A stretch of DNA of 32,226 nt from Phycisphaerae bacterium (GTDB taxonomy: Bacteria; Planctomycetota; Phycisphaerae; SM23-33): the NCBI GenBank assembly GCA_049510055.1, contig JBEKZI010000017.1, positions 1-32,226 on the forward strand, in the 5' to 3' direction. Position numbers and translations under genes: made by a program. Below are positions 8,715 through 17,397 of the stretch, one piece after another; position 1 is the first letter of the stretch; each line of letters starts with the position of its first letter. The notes under the pieces are model-generated. The model had not been told where the DNA came from and did no database searches. It worked only from the letters and a program-made list of their open reading frames with translations.

Positions 8715-9066
8715 GGGGGCGAACTGGCTTCGACCGGACGAGTTGCGGTGTCGGTGGCGTGCCCAGGTTCCAAGGAGGCCTGGTAAAACACCTTGGACTA
8801 ACTTCAGATGCCAATCCCGAATTGGCACTGGCTGCCTAATTAGGTAGCCCGTCCGGTGGGTCTTGCCCGCGAGGCCCGCCAGGACGCAAGCAGCGGGCTT
8901 ACCGGCTGGGAGTGGCCCGGTTACCCAGTCGGGACATTATGGGCGGGCTCGCCTTCGCCGGACCGTGTCGCCGCGGGCCGGCGAGGGGAGACCAAAACAG
9001 CGACTACGCACGTAGAGGCCGGCACTGAAACGTCACGGGACCCGGGTTCGATTCCCGGCGCCTCCA
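8715..9066 (+). ncRNA. ssrA: tmRNA (SsrA), one-piece, ~352 nt
   Basis: The 5' end GGGGGCGAACUGGCUUCGACC matches the tmRNA consensus (GGGGnnGA..UUCGAC). The 3' end GGACCCGGGUUCGAUUCCCGGCGCCUCCA has a T-arm plus an acceptor strand that pairs with the 5' GGGGGCG (6 Watson-Crick pairs and 1 G-U pair). An in-frame tag ORF GCC AAU CCC GAA UUG GCA CUG GCU GCC UAA lies at 8810..8839, about 95 nt from the 5' end; the E. coli resume codon is at about 90 nt. An E. coli-like GCACGUAGA element precedes the T-arm. Confidence 0.8.
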
Positions 9067-9147
9067 TCCTGCTTCGCTCCGGCCTGAGGGGCCGGAGCTT
9101 CGCAGGACTTTGTCCTGCGAAGTAAGCGAAGCGAACTAAAAGCAGGT

Positions 9148-9473: not shown

Positions 9474-11615
9474 ATGCGGGATTTCACCCGATCTTTGAAG
9501 TACCTCTGGCCTTACCGGCTGCGGATAGGTCTGGCCCTGCTCTGCACGCTGGGTATCAGCGTGCTGTGGGCCGGCGGACTGGCTGCGATCCTGCCGGCGG
9601 CCAAGGTGCTGATGTCTTCCGAGGGCCTGCACGGCTGGGTGTACAGGCTGGCGGCCTCGGACCGCCTGGGCGTGGACCTGGTCTCGTACTTGCCCCCCGA
9701 GCGCACCCAACTCCAGGGCCAGCAGCTCTCTTGGGTGGTGGCGGTGGGGCAGCCCCATCGTTCGCACCGCAACGCCGGCGCCCTGCTGCCGGGCCAGTGG
9801 GTGGTGGGTCTGGAGGATGGCGACGTCGCTCACCGGTTTCTGCGGGCGGATGCACTGCTGCGGCTGCTGGCGATGCAGCAGCCGGATCGGCGGATCACGC
9901 TTCGCGTATGCCGGTCGGACAGCGACCAGATTACGCTGTTGCCTGTGGTGACAAGCACGTTGACCCTGTCGACCCAAGCGATGCTTTGGCTGACCCGGCG
10001 CTTTCCCGAGCCGCGGACCTTCGCGGACCGCTTCCCGATCCTGTTGACGCTGCTGGTCTTCGGGATCGTCATCAGCATCCTGCGCGACGCCCTGCGGATT
10101 CTTCAGGAATTCCTGTCCAGCTCGGCGGTGTGGTACGCGGTGAATGACATCCGCAACGACAACTACAACGTGGCCCTGCGTCTGCCGGTGGGCTATTACG
10201 CCAAGCACGGGACCGCCGACGCGATCAGCCGTTTCACCTATGACGTGGGTATGCTGGCCCGGGGGCTCATCACGTTGCTGAGCAAGACGCTGGTGGAGCC
10301 CGCCAAGGCGTTGGCGACGCTGGCCCTGGCGCTCATCCTGTCCTGGAAGCTGACCCTGATCGCCCTGATCGCCGGTCCGCCGGCATTCCTGGCCATTCGC
10401 CGGCTGGGGCGGGCGATGCGACGCGTTTCGCGCCAGGCGATGCTGAGCATGTCCCAAATGCTGGAGGTGCTGGAGGAGACGCTCGGCGGCATCCGAGTGG
10501 TCAAGGCCTACACCATGGAGAATCGCGAGCGCCGGCGGTTCCTGCGGGTCAACCACCAGTTGCTCCGCCAGAACCTCAAGGTGTTCTTTGTGGAAGCGTT
10601 GACGGCCCCGATCGTGGAGGCGCTGGGGATCACCGCGGCCATGGCCGCCGTAGCCGTGGCGGGATACTGGGTGCTCCACAATCAGCACGACTTGGACGCC
10701 GAGAAGTTCCTGGCGTTGATGGCGTGCCTGGTGGCGATGTTCGACCCGATTCGCAAGCTCTCGTCCGTTTCGACCGTCTTTCACGCCTCGGACGCCGCCG
10801 CGGCGCGGATCAGGGAACTGCACGATGCGCCGCAGGAAGTCACGTCGCCCGGGGCGCCCAGTCTGCCGCGCCACCGGCGCAGCATCGAGTTCCGCCACGT
10901 CAGTTTCCGCTACGACGGGACGAGCGATGACGCCCTTCGCGACGTCAACCTGACTATCCGGGCCGGCGAGAACGTAGCCATCGTCGGGCCCAACGGTTCG
11001 GGCAAGACCACGCTGGTGTCGATGCTCCCGCGATTGTTGGACCCCACGACCGGCCAGGTGCTCATTGATGGGACGGACATCGCGCGGTGCTCTTTGCGGT
11101 CGTTGCGGCGGCAGATCGGGCTGGTGACGCAGGACGCCGTACTTTTCCACGCCACGATCGAGGAGAACATCTCCTACGGTCTGCACCGTTCGCAGCCCGA
11201 CAAGACCCGCCGCGCGGCCGAGCGGGCCTACGTGGACGAATTCATCCGGAAACTGCCCGAAGGATACGGCACCCTTGTGGGCCCCCATGGAGCGACGCTC
11301 TCGGGCGGGGAGAAGCAGCGGATCAGTATCGCTCGTGCCATCCTGCGCGACCCGGCTATCCTCATCTTTGACGAGGCGATGAGCCAGATCGACTCCGATT
11401 CGGAGCACCGGATTCAGCAAGCGATGCAGGAGTTCTCACGTGGCCGGACGACGCTGATCGTCGCGCACCGCTTTGCGACGGTGCTGGCCGCCGGCCGCAT
11501 TGTGGTGATGCAGGCGGGGCGGATTCAGGACAGCGGCACGCACGACGAGTTGATGAGCCGCTGTGAACTCTATCGACACCTCTACGCCACTCAGTTCATC
11601 GCCACGGGCGGCTAG
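9474..11615 (+). CDS. ABC exporter (fused transmembrane and ATPase domains, MsbA/McjD-like) with a ~150-aa extracytoplasmic insertion between TM1 and TM2
   Basis: It has Walker A GPNGSGKTT, ABC signature LSGGEKQR, Walker B ILIFDEAMS and an H-loop IVAHR. Six hydrophobic helices are present, plus a long hydrophilic loop (residues ~48-190) after TM1. It is convergent with the RiPP operon. The 738-aa minus-strand ORF over it is an antisense artefact. Confidence 0.9.
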   Translation: MRDFTRSLKYLWPYRLRIGLALLCTLGISVLWAGGLAAILPAAKVLMSSEGLHGWVYRLAASDRLGVDLVSYLPPERTQLQGQQLSWVVAVGQPHRSHRNAGALLPGQWVVGLEDGDVAHRFLRADALLRLLAMQQPDRRITLRVCRSDSDQITLLPVVTSTLTLSTQAMLWLTRRFPEPRTFADRFPILLTLLVFGIVISILRDALRILQEFLSSSAVWYAVNDIRNDNYNVALRLPVGYYAKHGTADAISRFTYDVGMLARGLITLLSKTLVEPAKALATLALALILSWKLTLIALIAGPPAFLAIRRLGRAMRRVSRQAMLSMSQMLEVLEETLGGIRVVKAYTMENRERRRFLRVNHQLLRQNLKVFFVEALTAPIVEALGITAAMAAVAVAGYWVLHNQHDLDAEKFLALMACLVAMFDPIRKLSSVSTVFHASDAAAARIRELHDAPQEVTSPGAPSLPRHRRSIEFRHVSFRYDGTSDDALRDVNLTIRAGENVAIVGPNGSGKTTLVSMLPRLLDPTTGQVLIDGTDIARCSLRSLRRQIGLVTQDAVLFHATIEENISYGLHRSQPDKTRRAAERAYVDEFIRKLPEGYGTLVGPHGATLSGGEKQRISIARAILRDPAILIFDEAMSQIDSDSEHRIQQAMQEFSRGRTTLIVAHRFATVLAAGRIVVMQAGRIQDSGTHDELMSRCELYRHLYATQFIATGG

Positions 11616-11715: not shown

Positions 11716-13179
11716 CTACCAGGGCACGCGCAGGGCCCGGAGGGGATGCCGCAGGACGAACCGGGCCAGCTTGCGGCGCATCGCCCGCCGGACGGCGAGA
11801 TCCCCTGACGGGGTATCGCGAAGGTAGGCCCACCGCATCTGCGGTTTGACGGTGTACTTCAGGAACCTCCGGTAGGCGCGGTTGAGCTCCTCATCCGACA
11901 TGGCCGTGAGGTTCACCGACGGGCCCGGCACTTCGAAGTAGGAAAGGCTTCCCCAGGTCAGAGTGCTCCGCTCTTGTGGACTGAGGTCCTGGTAGATCGG
12001 CGTGCCGGGCAGCGGGAAAAGCCGGCCGGCGGCGATGATCTCGGGTCTGGCCTGGCGCAGGAACTTGACGGTCTGGTTCAAATCCCATGCCGTTTCGCCG
12101 GGCAGACCTACCATGATGTCGGCGAAGATGCGCAGGCCCGCCTGGCGGGTCAGCAAGACGGCCCGGCGGTTGAGCTCGGCGGTGGCGTTCTTGCCCAGCC
12201 GGCGCAGCGCGTCGCTTGAACCGCTCTCAAAGCCGTACTCCACCTGGATGCACCCGGCCGATTTCATCTGATTCAGCAGCTCGCTGTCCGCTTGGTCCAC
12301 ACGCAGGCAGGCGTCCCATTGGAGCTGTTGGTGCAGGCCGGCGCGTCGGATCTGCTCGCAGAGCTCCAGCAGCCGCGAACGGTCGGCCCCCAGCGTGTCA
12401 TCCTCAAAGTGGATGGCCTCGACGCCGAACCGCCGGCGAGCAACCTGCATCTGCTCGATGACGTACGGAATGGAATGGAACCGCACGCCGACGCCGGAAA
12501 TCAAGTGCCCGGCGCAGAAGCGGCAGCGATTCGTGCAGCCGCGACTGGTGCGAATGTTGATCGCGGCGAGCTTGAGCCAGCGGATCAGGAATCGCCCTGG
12601 CGAGGTGTAGTAATCCATGCCGAATAGGTCGTAGGCGGGCGGTCCCAGGGTGTCCAGGTCCGTTACCGGCGGGCGGTCGGGCGTGCGGACGATGCCGCCG
12701 GCGGTGCGGAAGGCGATTCCCCGCACCGCTGGGCCGGGCCCGCCCTCGGCCAGCTCTCGCAGGGTGATTTCGCCCTCCCCGATGACGGCGACGTCGATCT
12801 GGGGACACTCCTGGAGCAGATGCTCGGGCAGGGCGGTGGGGTGCGGGCCGCCGGCCACTACCAGCGTCGCCGGGCCGCAGATCGTCTTGGCGTCCTGGGC
12901 CGCGAGTTGCCCTTCGGGCACACCCGGGGTTACCAGGGACAGTCCGACTATTTGCGGCTGGAACTCCTGCATCAATGTCTGCAGACTCGCCCGAGCGGCC
13001 GGCCAGTCAAAGCCGTTGCGCACCAACTGTTCCTCGGCGACGTACACCTTGACCTCATGGCCGCTGCGTCTCAGGACGGTCGCGATGCAGGCGATGCCAG
13101 TGGGCACCCATTGGGATCGAAAGATCCCTCGGGGCCAATCGGAGCGAGGAGGCGCGGGATAGACCAGCAGGATTTTCAT
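11716..13179 (-). CDS. B12-binding (class B) radical SAM enzyme
   Basis: An N-terminal cobalamin-binding Rossmann-like domain (MKILLVYPAPP ...) is followed by a radical SAM CxxxCxxC motif (CTNRCRFC). The start at 13179 forms an ATGA overlap with the upstream stop codon. The track ORF extends to 13281, which is unlikely to be the real start. Confidence 0.8.
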   Translation of the reverse strand: MKILLVYPAPPRSDWPRGIFRSQWVPTGIACIATVLRRSGHEVKVYVAEEQLVRNGFDWPAARASLQTLMQEFQPQIVGLSLVTPGVPEGQLAAQDAKTICGPATLVVAGGPHPTALPEHLLQECPQIDVAVIGEGEITLRELAEGGPGPAVRGIAFRTAGGIVRTPDRPPVTDLDTLGPPAYDLFGMDYYTSPGRFLIRWLKLAAINIRTSRGCTNRCRFCAGHLISGVGVRFHSIPYVIEQMQVARRRFGVEAIHFEDDTLGADRSRLLELCEQIRRAGLHQQLQWDACLRVDQADSELLNQMKSAGCIQVEYGFESGSSDALRRLGKNATAELNRRAVLLTRQAGLRIFADIMVGLPGETAWDLNQTVKFLRQARPEIIAAGRLFPLPGTPIYQDLSPQERSTLTWGSLSYFEVPGPSVNLTAMSDEELNRAYRRFLKYTVKPQMRWAYLRDTPSGDLAVRRAMRRKLARFVLRHPLRALRVPW

Positions 13180-14090
13180 CTGGATTTCAACGTACTCCGG
13201 AACCATTGCCGGCGGAATGAGTCGCGCCGAGCGTGTCCGCGCAGGACGACGCCGCGGCTCAGTGCCAGGCGGCTTAACCAAGGGGGCCGGGACAGGCCCA
13301 GACGCCGCGCTAACTCGCGGCAGCGGCTCTCGCCCAGCAGCTTATAGGCCAGCCACAGGCCCATCGCAACCGCCTTGGCCGCCCCGGTGCGGGCCAGGGC
13401 GTCCTTCAGCCAGGCCTCGTCCAGTCCACCGGCCGCTTGACGAACCGCCAGCGTGAGGTCCACCAGCGGTTGCAGGCGATCGAAACTGTGGCTGGCGGCG
13501 CCGTGGACCGCCGCGATCAGGATCGTCCCGGCCGGGCTGGGATGGGGCAGAGGATCGGCTGGAGTCAGTTGCAGGTCCTCGAAGCTCACCGACACGCCGC
13601 GCCGCAAGGTGGGAGAGTTCACCAGGTTGGTGTGCACCTCCACGTGGCCGGCTGATCGCTGGGGCCGATGCCAGACCTCCTCCCCGTAACCCAGGGGGTG
13701 CTTCATGGCGACGACGACCGGCCGGTATCCCAGGTGCTCCATCCGGGGGCGTGTCGCGGCCAGCGCCGACTGCGGGATCAGCAGGTCCACGTCGGTGAAA
13801 GACCTCAGCGACGGGTGAGGATAGAGGCGATCGGCGAAATCGTAACCCTTCAGGACGATCACCGGCAAAGCAGCTTGGCGGAAGTCCTGGGTGATCTCGT
13901 GAGCCTGCTGCCGCAGCGCCAGGCACAGGCCTGTTCGTTGAAGGATCATGCCTGGGACGGATTCCCACAACGCCTGCGCCTTATCATCCCCGTTCCACAA
14001 CACCTGGCCGCGATCCGCCAGGCGGTGGATGTTGGACGCGACCGCCGGCAACACGCCGTGACGATCCGCCAGATCCAGCAGGAGTTTCAT
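13176..14090 (-). CDS. Nucleotidyltransferase-family protein (PF14907-like uncharacterised nucleotidyltransferase)
   Basis: The motif LKGYDFADRLYPHPSLRSFTDVDLLIP matches the family signature (hG-x-aromatic ... R-x-x-DiDlli). The start is taken at ATG 14090 (MKLLLDL); the track ORF begins at an upstream TTG. Family assignment is from memory of the motif and is moderately certain. Confidence 0.65.
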   Translation of the reverse strand: MKLLLDLADRHGVLPAVASNIHRLADRGQVLWNGDDKAQALWESVPGMILQRTGLCLALRQQAHEITQDFRQAALPVIVLKGYDFADRLYPHPSLRSFTDVDLLIPQSALAATRPRMEHLGYRPVVVAMKHPLGYGEEVWHRPQRSAGHVEVHTNLVNSPTLRRGVSVSFEDLQLTPADPLPHPSPAGTILIAAVHGAASHSFDRLQPLVDLTLAVRQAAGGLDEAWLKDALARTGAAKAVAMGLWLAYKLLGESRCRELARRLGLSRPPWLSRLALSRGVVLRGHARRDSFRRQWFRSTLKSR

Positions 14091-14184
14091 CTGTTCCCCC
14101 CGCAAGGGAGCGACCGTGACCGGTATGTCGCGCCCGAGGGGATCGGCCAGTGCCGCCAGAATGGAATAGATCGGCTTCAGAGGT

Positions 14185-15168
14185 TCACCTCAGCAGCGAC
14201 GTGACCAGCGCCCCAAGCTCTTGGAGGCGAGGGCCAAGGCTCACCTCGTACGTGTCGCTCGTGCGAACCAGCTCAGCCATGGCCGCGAACGCCCGCCCGT
14301 CGCTGCCCTCGCGGTGCTTCTCGTACGCACGCACGTTCTCGTTGACCAATCGGACCAGAGCGCGGGTTTTGTCCAGGGGATGCACCTGATGCTGCCAGGG
14401 ATTGTGGGGATTGAGGAAAAGGATCAGCCCCGCCGAGGCGGCCACGCGGGTGGTCGGCGCCGCGGCCGGCCGCACATCCACCAGCACCTCATCGTTTCCG
14501 ATGTGGCCCCTGTGAGGCAGTCCTGCCAGCCACGGCAGCATCTGAATCGTTTGGCGGTGGACCTTGCAGGGGAAGCGAAGGCCCCAGAGCTGCGCATCGT
14601 GGTGCGGCGTGGCCGGGCTGAAGAACGTGATGTCGTCGGCCAGCAGGCTGAAGCCTTCGCCGGCCAGGCCCAGGGCCGTGGTGGTCTTTCCCCTCCCGCT
14701 GAGGCCGGAGATGAGCACGGCCCGTCGCTGCGGCGGACGATCCAGGAACAGGCTGGCGGCGTGGATGACGTAGTGCCCCTGGTCGTTGAGGATGTCGCAG
14801 AGCCACGGCAGGACGCACGCCTCCAGCAGGCACCTTTCGGCCCCGGGCCGGACGACGAACTCCGCCCGCCCCGCCGACAAGTCCACGTCGGCCGTGGCTT
14901 GGTCGATCACCTCGGTTTGGCGTCTTCGCGGATTGCAGCGGAAGATGATTCGACTTCCGTTAGGCAGCGAACCCCGCCAGAATTCCGGCAGGTCCGTCAG
15001 GGCAGGCAAGTGCTGCGCGTAGCGAATGCGGAGGCAAAACGCCCCGTCGCCCGGCTGGGCGGCATAGGCGCCAATGGCGGCCTGCACGGGGGCGAGCAGC
15101 GCCGGGTCGTCCGCCTCGACGGCGATGCGTTCGCCATGAACGTCGAAATGGGCTTGGACGGAACACAT
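14185..15168 (-). CDS. HPr kinase/phosphorylase C-terminal-domain-like P-loop kinase (HprK-related kinase)
   Basis: P-loop LISGLSGRGKTTTALGLAGEGFSLLADD is typical of the HprK-like kinases found in RiPP and lasso clusters. There is no HPr-binding N-terminal domain. Only one in-frame ATG is available. Confidence 0.75.
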   Translation of the reverse strand: MCSVQAHFDVHGERIAVEADDPALLAPVQAAIGAYAAQPGDGAFCLRIRYAQHLPALTDLPEFWRGSLPNGSRIIFRCNPRRRQTEVIDQATADVDLSAGRAEFVVRPGAERCLLEACVLPWLCDILNDQGHYVIHAASLFLDRPPQRRAVLISGLSGRGKTTTALGLAGEGFSLLADDITFFSPATPHHDAQLWGLRFPCKVHRQTIQMLPWLAGLPHRGHIGNDEVLVDVRPAAAPTTRVAASAGLILFLNPHNPWQHQVHPLDKTRALVRLVNENVRAYEKHREGSDGRAFAAMAELVRTSDTYEVSLGPRLQELGALVTSLLR

Positions 15169-15216: not shown

Positions 15217-15299
15217 GCCGCCATACGGATTTTTGTGTCAAATGGGTTTAGACCGGTACGCTCCCGTCCGCGGCCGAGCCGGTTGCGACGCCTGAAACG

Positions 15300-15410
15300 C
15301 CCCCCCGTTACATCCGAAAGCTGCTCACGCTTCTGAAACGTTGGCTGAGAAGAGGGCTTCTGGGGCGTTTCTACGCTTTCCCTAACCCGATACCGTGGCG
15401 AAGCCGCACT
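15300..15410 (-). pseudogene. Decayed ninth copy of a type-1 precursor-peptide unit (start codon and Shine-Dalgarno lost)
   Basis: It aligns base-for-base with the functional units (for example CATCCGAAAGCTGCTCACGCTTCTGAAACGTTGGCTGAGAAGAGGGCTTCTGGGGCGTTTCTACGC against TATCCGAGAGCTTTTCACGCTTCTGGAGCGTAGGCGGAGAATAGGGTTTCTTCGTTTGCATGC). TCTACGC replaces TGCATGC at the start, and the SD CTCCTTC is mutated to TTTCCCT. Confidence 0.5.
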
Positions 15411-15416
15411 GTCTAT

Positions 15417-15518
15417 TTAAAAGGGCCCCCCTGAGCCGCGGACCGGGCTTTGAGTCGTATCCGAGAGCTTTTCGCGCTTCTGGAGCGTTGGCGGAGAATA
15501 GGGTTTCTTCGTTTTCAT
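15417..15518 (-). CDS. Precursor peptide A, type 1 (33 aa): MKTKKPYSPPTLQKREKLSDTTQ | SPVRGSGGPF
   Basis: AAGGAGAT Shine-Dalgarno 8 nt before the ATG. The leader carries Y-17, P-14, L-12 and T-2. It is not in the ORF track (under 60 aa). It is one of 8 tandem paralogues. Confidence 0.7.
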   Translation of the reverse strand: MKTKKPYSPPTLQKREKLSDTTQSPVRGSGGPF

Positions 15519-15562: not shown

Positions 15563-15667
15563 TTAACGCCTAGCGCCCGAGGTGATGGAGGGACCGCCTT
15601 GAGTCATATCTGAGAGCTTGTCCCGCTTTTGGAGCGTCGGCGGAGAATAGGGCTTCTTCGTTTTCAT
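15563..15667 (-). CDS. Precursor peptide B, type 1 (34 aa): MKTKKPYSPPTLQKRDKLSDMTQ | GGPSITSGARR
   Basis: Hand-translated from the minus strand. AAAGAGCT Shine-Dalgarno-like sequence. Same leader as peptide A; the core differs. Confidence 0.7.
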   Translation of the reverse strand: MKTKKPYSPPTLQKRDKLSDMTQGGPSITSGARR

Positions 15668-15712: not shown

Positions 15713-15826
15713 TTAACCCGTACCATCCCTAGCGCCTGAGGTGATGGGGGGACTACCTTGAGTCATATCTGAGAGCTTGTCCCGCTTCTGGAGCGTAGGC
15801 GGAGAATAGGGCTTCTTCGTTTTCAT
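15713..15826 (-). CDS. Precursor peptide C, type 1 (37 aa): MKTKKPYSPPTLQKRDKLSDMTQ | GSPPITSGARDGTG
   Basis: Hand-translated from the minus strand. Leader identical to peptide B. Core carries the ITSG motif. Confidence 0.7.
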   Translation of the reverse strand: MKTKKPYSPPTLQKRDKLSDMTQGSPPITSGARDGTG

Positions 15827-15871: not shown

Positions 15872-15985
15872 TTAAGCATTACCATCCCTAGCGCCTGAGG
15901 TGATGGGGGGGTCGCCTTGAGTCATATCTGAAAGCTTGTCCCGCTTCTGGAGCGTAGGTGGAGAATAGGGTTTCTTCGTTTTCAT
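15872..15985 (-). CDS. Precursor peptide D, type 1 (37 aa): MKTKKPYSPPTLQKRDKLSDMTQ | GDPPITSGARDGNA
   Basis: Hand-translated from the minus strand. AAAGGAGAT Shine-Dalgarno. Leader identical to peptides B and C. Confidence 0.7.
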   Translation of the reverse strand: MKTKKPYSPPTLQKRDKLSDMTQGDPPITSGARDGNA

Positions 15986-16030
15986 GCGATCTCCTTTAGC
16001 CAGCACCGTGGCGACGCCGCAGAAGCCTAC

Positions 16031-16141
16031 TTAATCATTAGCATCAACGCCCGAGGTGATGGAGGCCCCGCCTTGAGTCGTATCCGAGAGCTTTTCACGC
16101 TTCTGGAGCGTAGGCGGAGAATAGGGTTTCTTCGTTTGCAT
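16031..16141 (-). CDS. Precursor peptide E, type 1 (36 aa): MQTKKPYSPPTLQKREKLSDTTQ | GGASITSGVDAND
   Basis: It is the internal Met of track ORF 16031..16240. AAGGAGAT Shine-Dalgarno before this ATG. Confidence 0.75.
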   Translation of the reverse strand: MQTKKPYSPPTLQKREKLSDTTQGGASITSGVDAND

Positions 16142-16181
16142 GCAATCTCCTTCAACCGGCACCGTGGCGACGCCGCGTTGG

Positions 16182-16292
16182 TCACGGGGGTGTAGGTGTA
16201 ACCCCGCTGACGCCGTCGGGCACAGCGGTGATGTCGGCAAGCCGCTCCAGCTTCTTCAACACGGGTTTGACATAGGGCTTCTTGGCGTTCAT
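16182..16292 (-). CDS. Precursor peptide F, type 2 (36 aa): MNAKKPYVKPVLKKLERLADITA | VPDGVSGVTPTPP
   Basis: It is the internal Met of track ORF 16182..16364. AAGGAAT Shine-Dalgarno. The type-2 leader carries the same Y-17, P-14, L-12 and T-2 positions. Confidence 0.75.
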   Translation of the reverse strand: MNAKKPYVKPVLKKLERLADITAVPDGVSGVTPTPP

Positions 16293-16305
16293 GCGTATTC
16301 CTTGG

Positions 16306-16416
16306 TCACTCGGGTGTAACCCCGCTGACGACGCCGGGCGTACCCTGAGCGGTGATGTCGGCAAGCCGCTCCAGCTTCTTCAACACGGGTTTGGCATAGG
16401 ACTTCTTGGTGTCCAT
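16306..16416 (-). CDS. Precursor peptide G, type 2 (36 aa): MDTKKSYAKPVLKKLERLADITA | QGTPGVVSGVTPE
   Basis: It is the internal Met of track ORF 16306..16488. AAAGGAAT Shine-Dalgarno. Confidence 0.75.
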   Translation of the reverse strand: MDTKKSYAKPVLKKLERLADITAQGTPGVVSGVTPE

Positions 16417-16429
16417 GCGTATTCCTTTT

Positions 16430-16540
16430 TCAACCGGGTGTAGCCCCACTGACGACGCCGGGCGTGCCCTGAGCGGTGATGTCGGCAAGCCGCTCCAGCT
16501 TCTTCAACACGGGTTTGGCATAAGGCTTCTTGGCGTTCAT
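16430..16540 (-). CDS. Precursor peptide H, type 2 (36 aa): MNAKKPYAKPVLKKLERLADITA | QGTPGVVSGATPG
   Basis: It is the internal Met of track ORF 16430..16663. AAAGGAAT Shine-Dalgarno. It is the first gene of the array after B2. Confidence 0.75.
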   Translation of the reverse strand: MNAKKPYAKPVLKKLERLADITAQGTPGVVSGATPG

Positions 16541-16646
16541 GCGTATTCCTTTCGCGTGCGGTCTGCCAAGCACGGAAATACGACCCGTATGAATGAGCGT
16601 CCACCACGTGTGACTTCGGACGAAGCTGGGCGGAAACTTAACACAG

Positions 16647-17117
16647 TTATGGGGCTTGTGCAAGGTCCTCTTTGACGGAATTTTCTTGCGCCGCGGCCCC
16701 GTGGACCAGCACCACCGCCGCCGGGCCGTCCGGGGGCGACGTTAAGGCTATATCATTGAGCGTCACCCAGCCGTGGGCTTGGGTTCGCGGGGCCTCCGGG
16801 TTTTGCGGATACACGCCGATTCGCAAAACGGCCGGGTAGCCTGCCAGGCGCAGGAAGTGAAACAGGGTTAGGGACTGTCGCAGGCAGGGGCGACGGCGCA
16901 TGTTGCGAGGGTTTTTCAGACGTTGCGCTACCCGCTCCACGATATCCTGCCAGGCAATGCCCCGGTAGGGGACCACGGAAGTCGGGGGCGTCAGCACGCG
17001 TAACACTCGCTTGAGCGACAAGACCTTGTCCAGCAGGGGAATGAACGTCGCCACCAGCCAGATGTGCGCCCGTAACAACGGCAATCGCAGCGACATGGGG
17101 CCGCTAGTGTTGCTCAA
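16647..17117 (-). CDS. Lasso-B2-like leader peptidase (transglutaminase-like Cys protease, PF13471-type)
   Basis: The protein has McjB-type catalytic residues: Cys in the RRRPCLRQSLTLFHFL context and His/Asp in QAHGWVTLNDIALTSPPDG. It is ~156 aa, the size of a stand-alone B2 domain. It overlaps the B1 stop by 14 nt; an alternative start lies at 17096. Confidence 0.75.
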   Translation of the reverse strand: MSNTSGPMSLRLPLLRAHIWLVATFIPLLDKVLSLKRVLRVLTPPTSVVPYRGIAWQDIVERVAQRLKNPRNMRRRPCLRQSLTLFHFLRLAGYPAVLRIGVYPQNPEAPRTQAHGWVTLNDIALTSPPDGPAAVVLVHGAAAQENSVKEDLAQAP

Positions 17118-17397
17118 CCAGCAATTTCTCCTGAAGAAGCTTGCCCGCCAAGGCGGTCATGTCCCGGGTAAGCTCCTCTCGCGAGACTTCGTACTGTTCC
17201 CAAAGGGTTTCAATGGCCTCCCCGAGCGTCCGCCGGCCGTCCAGTGCCTGCAGGAAGGCGGCAGTGGTCTCATTGCACGTGTACAGGTACCCGGAGTTGA
17301 GCGAGAACACGACCGTGTCCGATCCGGGGCCCAACGACTGGTAGGTCACGTCGTCGGCCAGCTTCAATCGCAGGTTCAGTAGCGGTATGGCAGTCAT
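17104..17397 (-). CDS. PqqD-family RiPP recognition element (lasso B1-like)
   Basis: Residues 26-122 of the track ORF (MTAIPLLNLRLKLADDVTYQSLGPGSDTVVFSLNSGYLYTCNETTAAFLQALDGRRTLGEAIETLW...) show the PqqD fold pattern. The start at 17397 is chosen to exclude the non-conserved 25-aa extension. Confidence 0.75.
   Translation of the reverse strand: MTAIPLLNLRLKLADDVTYQSLGPGSDTVVFSLNSGYLYTCNETTAAFLQALDGRRTLGEAIETLWEQYEVSREELTRDMTALAGKLLQEKLLVEQH

Follow-up and report, generated by a model that had tools for sequence, protein, structure and literature searches.

The 32,226-nt stretch of the Phycisphaerae bacterium contig JBEKZI010000017.1 analyzed here (the window) carries a single minus-strand operon that represents a real, conserved and uncharacterised family of peptides that are ribosomally synthesised and then post-translationally modified (RiPPs). 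We consider it probable (roughly 0.6) that this operon derives from lasso-peptide machinery, operates without a macrolactam cyclase and makes short, linear, phosphate-decorated peptides. In order, it encodes a PqqD-type RiPP recognition element (RRE), B1; a lasso-type cysteine protease, B2; eight precursors and one decayed copy; an HprK-like kinase; a nucleotidyltransferase (NTase); and a B12-binding radical S-adenosylmethionine enzyme (rSAM). Coordinates refer to the whole stretch, and all open reading frames (ORFs) of the operon lie on the minus strand.

17104..17397, minus strand: B1, discrete PqqD-type RRE, 97 amino acids (aa); PF05402 E = 1.6e-12; the ORF reaches 17472
16647..17117, minus strand: B2, lasso-type transglutaminase-like Cys protease, presumed leader peptidase; NF033537 lasso_biosyn_B2 46 bits (cut-off 33), PF13471 E = 1.1e-10
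16430..16540, minus strand: precursor A1, MNAKKPYAKPVLKKLERLADITAQ/GTPGVVSGATPG; YxxPxL leader, Shine-Dalgarno-like AAGGAA upstream
16306..16416, minus strand: precursor A2, core GTPGVVSGVTPE
16182..16292, minus strand: precursor A3, core VPDGVSGVTPTPP
16031..16141, minus strand: precursor A4, core GGASITSGVDAND
15872..15985, minus strand: precursor A5 (given as MKTKKPYSPPTLQKRDKLSDMTQGDPPITSGARDGNA), core GDPPITSGARDGNA
15713..15826, minus strand: precursor A6, core GSPPITSGARDGTG
15563..15667, minus strand: precursor A7, core GGPSITSGARR
15417..15518, minus strand: precursor A8, core SPVRGSGGPF
15290..15400, minus strand: decayed ninth precursor unit, leader-like VETPQKPSSQPTFQKREQLSDVT; ATG changed to GTA, motif Tyr changed to Ser, no in-frame start
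14185..15168, minus strand: HprK-like P-loop peptide kinase, 327 aa, with an N-terminal beta domain and a nucleotide-binding domain of the HprK/phosphoenolpyruvate carboxykinase (PEPCK) type
13176..14090, minus strand: NTase-fold enzyme of PF14907 (NTP_transf_5), 304 aa; the ORF spans 13176-14105, and the gene callers' start at 14090 is the most likely one
11716..13206, minus strand: B12-binding rSAM enzyme, 496 aa; PF02310 and PF04055, CTNRCRFC; 31-nt overlap between its start and the NTase stop

Presumed lasso-type leader processing without a cyclase

The front of the operon is of lasso type. The 97-aa start of B1 is the one chosen by gene callers, its stop overlaps the start of B2, and B1 was collinear and 36–70% identical in other loci. 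In B2, residues C78, H115 and W117 were invariant among nine orthologues. A Shine-Dalgarno-like sequence preceded each of the eight precursor genes, and all eight leaders contained the motif Tyr(-17)xxPro(-14)xLeu(-12)...Thr(-2), in which Thr(-2) was often replaced by Ala elsewhere. Pairwise counts among the A4–A8 leaders gave 38 synonymous against 16 non-synonymous codon differences, whereas the cores differed mostly non-synonymously; conserved leaders combined with diversifying cores are as expected of real precursor genes. A ninth copy of a 50-nt leader repeat was found at 15312-15361, 78–82% identical to the copies of A4–A8 and 66% identical to those of A1–A3; copies are apparently both gained and lost in this array. 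The G+C content of the precursor region (0.59–0.61) was lower than that of the window (about 66%). A scan of the operon for promoters and terminators gave counts indistinguishable from those of shuffled sequences.

The preliminary description of this DNA had read the kinase and NTase as lasso tailoring enzymes. B1, B2 and the YxxPxL/Thr(-2) leader are indeed of lasso type; a lasso cyclase and, among the window cores, a ring-compatible core were both absent, and the fixed third tailoring gene, encoding the rSAM, had been overlooked. Scanning of predicted genes in the 32-kb window gave no match to an Asn_synthase domain (PF00733), which is that of the lasso cyclase, and none was found in the annotated or scanned flanks (±8–10 kb) of L007, L009, L011, L013–L015, L021–L024 and L033–L035, which are related loci described below. 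Because the operon has no macrolactam cyclase, its products are expected to stay linear.

We therefore weighed the core sequences against the possibility that this is an ordinary phosphorylated lasso cluster, whose cyclase lies elsewhere in the genome and whose kinase and NTase perform secondary tailoring as in paeninodin and pseudomycoidin. The core set comprised 47 cores from 13 loci, anchored on the leader Tyr, and 5000 shuffles were used for comparison. The lasso-type B1, B2 and leader motif agree with this possibility, as does Gly, the commonest first core residue (27/47); seven cores, all from other loci, were compatible with a lasso ring (G, A, S or C at position 1 and D or E at positions 7–9). 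However, the acidic residue at positions 7–9 was missing from all eight window cores and from 40 of the 47 overall, and the window cores, at 10–14 residues, leave just 3–7 residues past a notional ring. Together with the missing Asn_synthase-type gene in the window and about 14 other neighbourhoods, and with cores none of which ends in Ser, this makes an ordinary lasso cluster most improbable. In the arrays of L009, L016 and L035, some cores have Gly1 and Asp/Glu8 straight after Thr7 (for example GDRIRVTDGLIET, GNGVRITDRPLPPP) and are thus lasso-ring-compatible by sequence, with no cyclase nearby; the acidic residue is missing from other cores encoded in these arrays.

A conserved hydroxyl in the precursor cores

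A Ser or Thr occurred at core position 6 or 7 in 40 of the 47 cores (the shuffles averaged 13.7 and never exceeded 25), and it was the only conserved feature of the cores. The 12 further cores from L033–L035 all fit as well, with Thr (or Ser) at one of these two positions. The residue usually followed Val or Ile and preceded Gly or Asp/Glu/Gln/His (VVSG, ITSG, VTDG, IITG, FVTG, PISQ). These counts support the earlier proposal that the Ser/Thr of (I/V)(T/V)SG is the candidate modification site. The conserved hydroxyl lay at a fixed distance of about 23–24 residues from the leader Tyr, suggesting that the kinase is positioned by that distance. Distant relatives that lack the rSAM kept the motif, as GTISG in L014 and HVSG in L024, so that it tracks the kinase and NTase rather than the rSAM.

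In paeninodin-type lasso precursors, the residue phosphorylated by HprK-like kinases (PadeK, ThcoK and PsmK) is the C-terminal Ser (PMC6993621, PMC8498205). Since none of the 47 cores, the eight window cores included, ends in Ser, this specificity cannot be general here, in agreement with the preliminary description. A precedent for an internal site is LppK of the linear polyphosphorylated peptides (LPPs), which puts 1–4 phosphates on internal Ser3 of LppA (PMC13381572). In L028 (6548-6712) the core is only GAVPVVS, with the conserved position-7 Ser as its C-terminal residue; this core may be a link to the specificity of paeninodin-type kinases.

The position of the hydroxyl also bears on whether its modification is an end in itself. 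A (nucleotidyl-)phospho-Ser/Thr might be a transient activated form that either undergoes elimination to dehydroalanine or dehydrobutyrine or is attacked by the N-terminal amine released by B2, the outcome being a 6–7-residue ring in place of the lasso isopeptide. The conserved Ser/Thr does lie near positions 7–9 of the ring-closing Asp/Glu in lasso peptides, Gly1 is favoured, a leader peptidase that would free the N-terminus is retained, and the NTase could conceivably adenylylate a phosphate as ligases do. We nevertheless regard transient activation as unlikely, because the operon contains no lyase or cyclase homologue, the products of PsmK and LppK retain their phosphates (PMC6993621, PMC13381572), and position 1 is other than Gly in 20 of the 47 cores. 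Highly improbable is the specific version in which the kinase and NTase replace the cyclase, the phospho-Ser/Thr being adenylylated in ligase fashion and attacked by the freed amine to yield a phosphoramidate-bridged or, after elimination, amine-bridged macrocycle of 6–7 residues. If true, ring closure of this kind would amount to novel ring chemistry and define a novel RiPP class; in a less radical version, the end products may be peptide–nucleotide conjugates.

The HprK-like kinase

The ORFs and motifs that the preliminary description had quoted for the kinase and NTase were both seen in the translations of 14185-15168 (minus strand), which contains GLSGRGKTTTALGLAGEGFSLLADD, and 13176-14105 (minus strand), which contains LKGYDFADRLYPHPSLRSFTDVDLLIP. 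The kinase, in which VLISGLSGRGKTTTALGLAGEGFSLLADDITFF is also present, scored 20.5 bits against PF07475 (Hpr_kinase_C; gathering score 33.3), over residues 151–183 only, and 20.5 bits against TIGR00679 (HprK/P; cut-off 240). A profile built from 20 kinase homologues found HprK/P as the best solved relative (E = 3.7e-4), with the match limited to the P-loop/ADD segment. An AlphaFold2 model (pLDDT, the predicted local distance difference test score, 90.7) settles the matter in favour of a predicted HprK/P fold for the C-terminal half, the likeness to HprK/P being at the level of the fold and confined to that domain. The earlier claim that the kinase retains only the HprK C-terminal domain thus holds for the HprK homology; what it had missed is a further beta domain at the N-terminus, about 125 residues long, which the model places beyond the HprK-like part.

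The Walker A residues (G158, G160, K161, T162 and T163) and the D178–D179 pair were invariant among 20 homologues of 26–78% identity. The equivalent residues of PsmK, D158/D159, are essential (PMC6993621). Since the scores fell under every curated family threshold, the assignment as a kinase rests on fold and motifs. HprK/P proper and the PEPCK fold differ from this enzyme in that it scores below their thresholds, lacks the HprK/P N-terminal domain and sits in a context unrelated to the phosphotransferase system or carbon catabolite control. Membership of the HprK_rel_A/B systems described by Haft (TIGR04352, TIGR04355) was considered and rejected: the window kinase scored 38 and 18.6 bits, respectively, against cut-offs of 200, and the kinases of L013, L014, L024 and L029 scored 23–43 bits, all under the cut-offs. 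A search of the kinase profile against 1.84 billion 50%-identity cluster representatives identified 270 representatives at E ≤ 1e-30, a family without a curated family name.

The PF14907 nucleotidyltransferase

The assignment of the NTase to PF14907, made in the preliminary description from its signature, was confirmed: the protein scored 115.5 bits (E = 3.8e-33), where the gathering score is 31.2. K81–G82, D100/D102 and E151/H153 were invariant among 27 homologues, and the hG[GS] and DxD motifs were both found; the equivalents of D100/D102 in PsmN, D134/D136, are essential (PMC6993621). A sequence search of the PDB returned no match for the NTase, and only the fold search was informative: its predicted fold resembles those of the O-nucleotidylyltransferases ANT(2'') and LnuA, with the tRNA-nucleotidyltransferase toxin MenT1 as the best structural match. 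The MenT1 match prompted us to consider a defence or toxin–antitoxin module, which was rejected, as PADLOC gave no meaningful match for the kinase or the NTase.

Such kinase–NTase pairs had been described in the preliminary description as lacking an identified substrate, a statement that is outdated, given that PsmK and PsmN act on pseudomycoidin (PMC6993621) and LppK on LppA (PMC13381572). PsmN is required, directly or indirectly, for the addition of hexose (+162/+324 Da) on the phosphate of pseudomycoidin (PMC6993621, PMC8498205), and LppN was inactive in a heterologous host (PMC13381572). The mass shifts of +329/+345 Da predicted earlier are therefore one option among several, the only experimental precedent, PsmN, giving hexose.

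An alternative is that the two enzymes act on different atoms, the NTase directly AMPylating or UMPylating a Ser/Thr hydroxyl and the kinase phosphorylating a neighbour; T and S in ITSG would be such a pair. By fold, the NTase does come nearest to enzymes whose targets for nucleotidylylation are free hydroxyls (ANT(2''), LnuA and MenT), and adjacent hydroxyls occur in several cores (ITSG, GVTT). Most cores, however, have a single hydroxyl in the conserved stretch (VVSG, FVTG, IITG), and PsmN activity needed prior phosphorylation (PMC6993621), which makes separate targets improbable.

PF14907 transferases accompany HprK-like kinases in both lasso and LPP clusters, PsmN giving hexose adducts, directly or indirectly, and LppN being silent. 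The present operon offers a clean test bed for NTase chemistry, because its cores are short (10–14 residues), easily synthesised and carry a single conserved hydroxyl each.

The B12-binding radical SAM enzyme

The rSAM matched PF02310 (E = 6.8e-18, 65.1 bits) and PF04055 (E = 1e-17, 65.2 bits), and its cluster motif CTNRCRFC (CxxxCxxC) places it among the class B, i.e. B12-binding, radical SAM enzymes. It was the best-conserved gene of the operon, at 48–67% identity across loci. No specific subfamily cut-off was reached; an ApyD-type profile matched with E = 3.5e-38. The B12-dependent peptide C-methyltransferases PoyC/EreB, the bottromycin radical methyltransferases and ApyD are alike in having B12-binding and radical SAM domains within a RiPP operon, but the present enzyme fell under every curated cut-off, and HpnJ and BchE scored higher.

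Conservation of the operon across loci

Related loci were recovered by exact-sequence look-ups, by tblastn against fetched loci and by NTase-guided look-ups. Pattern scans of genome and of metagenome contigs each gave at least eight true loci, with unrelated P-loop proteins among the matches listed. The order PqqD, B2, one to eight small peptides, kinase, PF14907 and B12-rSAM was found in at least 11 independent contigs, mostly from metagenome-assembled genomes (MAGs) of Planctomycetota and Verrucomicrobiota. The full order was present in L001 (the window's own 190-kb contig), L007, L011/12, L013 (Verrucomicrobiota), L015 (a delta-proteobacterial MAG), L021, L022, L023, L033, L034 and L035, and partial copies were seen on the short contigs L016 and L025–L028. 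The genomic contexts of these loci were mutually unrelated, and an arrangement recurring in so many unrelated contigs is far beyond chance. The distant relatives L014 (Mesorhizobium sp. ANAO-SY3R2), L024 and L029 kept B1, B2, kinase and NTase, and lacked the rSAM.

The preliminary description had placed the kinase–NTase pair directly beside candidate peptide substrates. All eight precursors are present there, and the pair keeps its order relative to B1, B2 and the peptide arrays in different phyla, which supports kinase and NTase as a module that tailors the peptides encoded next to it. Alternatively, the two enzymes might leave the peptides unmodified and work on some other substrate, such as a small molecule, a protein or an envelope glycan, or constitute a toxin-like NTase module that only happens to be linked to the peptide genes. 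MenT1 as the best structural match of the NTase would fit such a role, as would the location of LPP and paeninodin clusters inside polysaccharide loci (PMC13381572). Yet across phyla, and in genomic surroundings unrelated to each other, the genes for kinase and NTase always lay between the precursor array and the rSAM gene, their ORFs overlapping or nearly abutting; the PADLOC defence families matched neither; and the Ser/Thr motif followed the two enzymes even in loci without the rSAM. A role of this kind, apart from the peptides, is thus very unlikely.

Proposed biosynthetic route

Gene identities, folds, catalytic residues, synteny, the missing cyclase and the conserved hydroxyl come from the present analysis; the action of the kinase on that hydroxyl, the order of the following steps and the chemistry of the NTase and rSAM are put forward by analogy with PsmK/PsmN and LppK. 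B1 would bind the shared lasso-type leader, Y(-17)xxPxL...(T/A)(-2), and the kinase would then use ATP to phosphorylate the position-6/7 Ser/Thr, possibly more than once. The NTase would elaborate the phosphate or the hydroxyl with a nucleotide-derived group, which may be a hexose or hexose-phosphate, as with PsmN, or a nucleoside monophosphate. The rSAM would modify the core, C-methylation near the Val/Ile-rich site being most likely. B2 would subsequently cut off the leader, and the products of 10–14 residues would be exported by an MsbA-like ABC pump, for which a candidate gene is convergent with the operon:

9474..11615, plus strand: MsbA-like ABC exporter, probable exporter; PF00664 and PF00005; best NCBIfam match MsbA_lipidA, 444 bits, under the cut-off of 602

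At 9474-10060 (plus strand), the exporter gene encodes an N-terminal extension of about 190 residues ahead of the recognised transmembrane domain, with no Pfam match and no C39 peptidase domain.

Several observations weigh against this proposal. The family members are known from sequence and predicted structure, and the kinase, identified from fold and motifs, is below all curated family thresholds. The NTase step is the weakest link, given the silent LppN and a PsmN that may act only indirectly (PMC13381572, PMC6993621). The best rSAM profiles are HpnJ and BchE, not peptide methylases, and all are far under cut-off. L009 and L010 have seven precursors together with kinase, NTase and rSAM, yet neither B1 nor B2 was present in the 10 kb on either side of the kinase gene, so that dependence on an RRE may not be universal. 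In L022 and L023, searches for precursors near the operon found no convincing ones. Finally, the ABC pump adjoins the operon only in the window and in L021, which has a 66% identical copy at the corresponding place.

Comparison with known systems

The closest known system is that of the LPPs, encoded by lppA-K-B-S-D-N in Paenibacillus alginolyticus (Bacillota) (Popov et al., Nat Commun, May 2026; PMC13381572). LPP clusters lack a cyclase and include an RRE, the HprK-like LppK, LppN as NTP transferase, a pump resembling MsbA and a leader peptidase of the signal-peptidase type (PMC13381572). Shared with the present operon are the discrete lasso-type RRE, the YxxP leader, the HprK-like kinase, the NTP transferase, the MsbA-like pump and the missing cyclase, LppK and LppN having been compared by description. 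The LPP kinase targets an internal Ser at a fixed place past the leader, and the conserved hydroxyl of the operon is likewise internal and at fixed spacing, but it lies at core position 6–7 rather than at Ser3. The LPP leader peptidase is a signal peptidase I of the archaeal type (LppS), whereas the operon has B2 and no signal peptidase among its genes. It also has the B12-rSAM as a fixed member, whereas LPPs are described without a radical SAM enzyme. Its arrays of one to eight genes with cores of 10–21 residues contrast with the one to three LPP precursors of 35–200 aa. From the LPP motif YxxPxVLxHQxIxFETxxS, only YxxPx(L/V) is common to both, VLxHQxIxFETxxS being absent here. The hosts of the operon are Planctomycetota, Verrucomicrobiota and some Proteobacteria; LPPs and paeninodins are stated to be restricted to Bacillota, with radical SAM enzymes and Planctomycetes unmentioned (PMC13381572).

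The paeninodin and pseudomycoidin systems (PadeK, ThcoK, PsmK and PsmN; PMC6993621, PMC8498205) share B1, B2, an HprK-like kinase with the DD pair and an NTase with DxD, and in them modification takes place on the precursor before leader removal, as envisaged for the operon. They differ from it in having a cyclase and a C-terminal Ser as target. Phospeptin (Paoli et al. 2022) was set aside as a relative, since it was cited with a LanM-type enzyme structure and not with an HprK-like kinase.

The operon follows LPP logic built from different parts: the lasso B2, a B12-rSAM and arrays of very short cores, in bacteria of the PVC (Planctomycetes–Verrucomicrobia–Chlamydiae) group. The cyclase-free combination of kinase, NTase and RRE extends beyond Bacillota, joined with another leader peptidase and a B12-rSAM, into Planctomycetota and Verrucomicrobiota, two phyla from which hardly any RiPP has been characterised. 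No description of a cyclase-free B1–B2–kinase–NTase–B12-rSAM operon was found in the full-text literature, whose coverage leaves out most subscription journals; this is weak evidence of novelty.

Neighbouring genes and individual loci

The operon is flanked by housekeeping genes: tmRNA (transfer-messenger RNA), an MtnA-like gene, a histidine kinase/response regulator pair, BipA, an SPFH protein, aldo-keto reductases and a transaldolase. About 400 nt separate the tmRNA gene (RF00023, 153 bits; 8715-9069, plus strand) from the end of the cluster at which the exporter is encoded. The gene for this RNA, ssrA, is a common integration site for islands. Neither an integrase nor a flanking direct repeat of the tmRNA 3' end was seen at the cluster.

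Individual loci showed further peculiarities. In L009/L010 (5777-8521, 8599-9854), a 914-aa protein without a Pfam match is encoded directly upstream of the precursor array. The NTase and rSAM frames of L022 (11001-13507) are each split in two, reflecting an assembly error or a decaying copy. A gene beside L023 with a GATase_7 domain only was considered as a cyclase and rejected, as it lacks an Asn_synthase domain; it more likely encodes an ordinary glutamine amidotransferase such as PurF. L013 has ABC-2 transporter genes upstream; downstream, about 2.6 kb past the operon (15960-17039), it carries another radical SAM gene, which is shorter and has no B12 domain. In L034 (6396-7607) and L035 (6338-7576), genes for a rubrerythrin-like protein and an encapsulin (Linocin_M18) lie immediately upstream of the PqqD gene.

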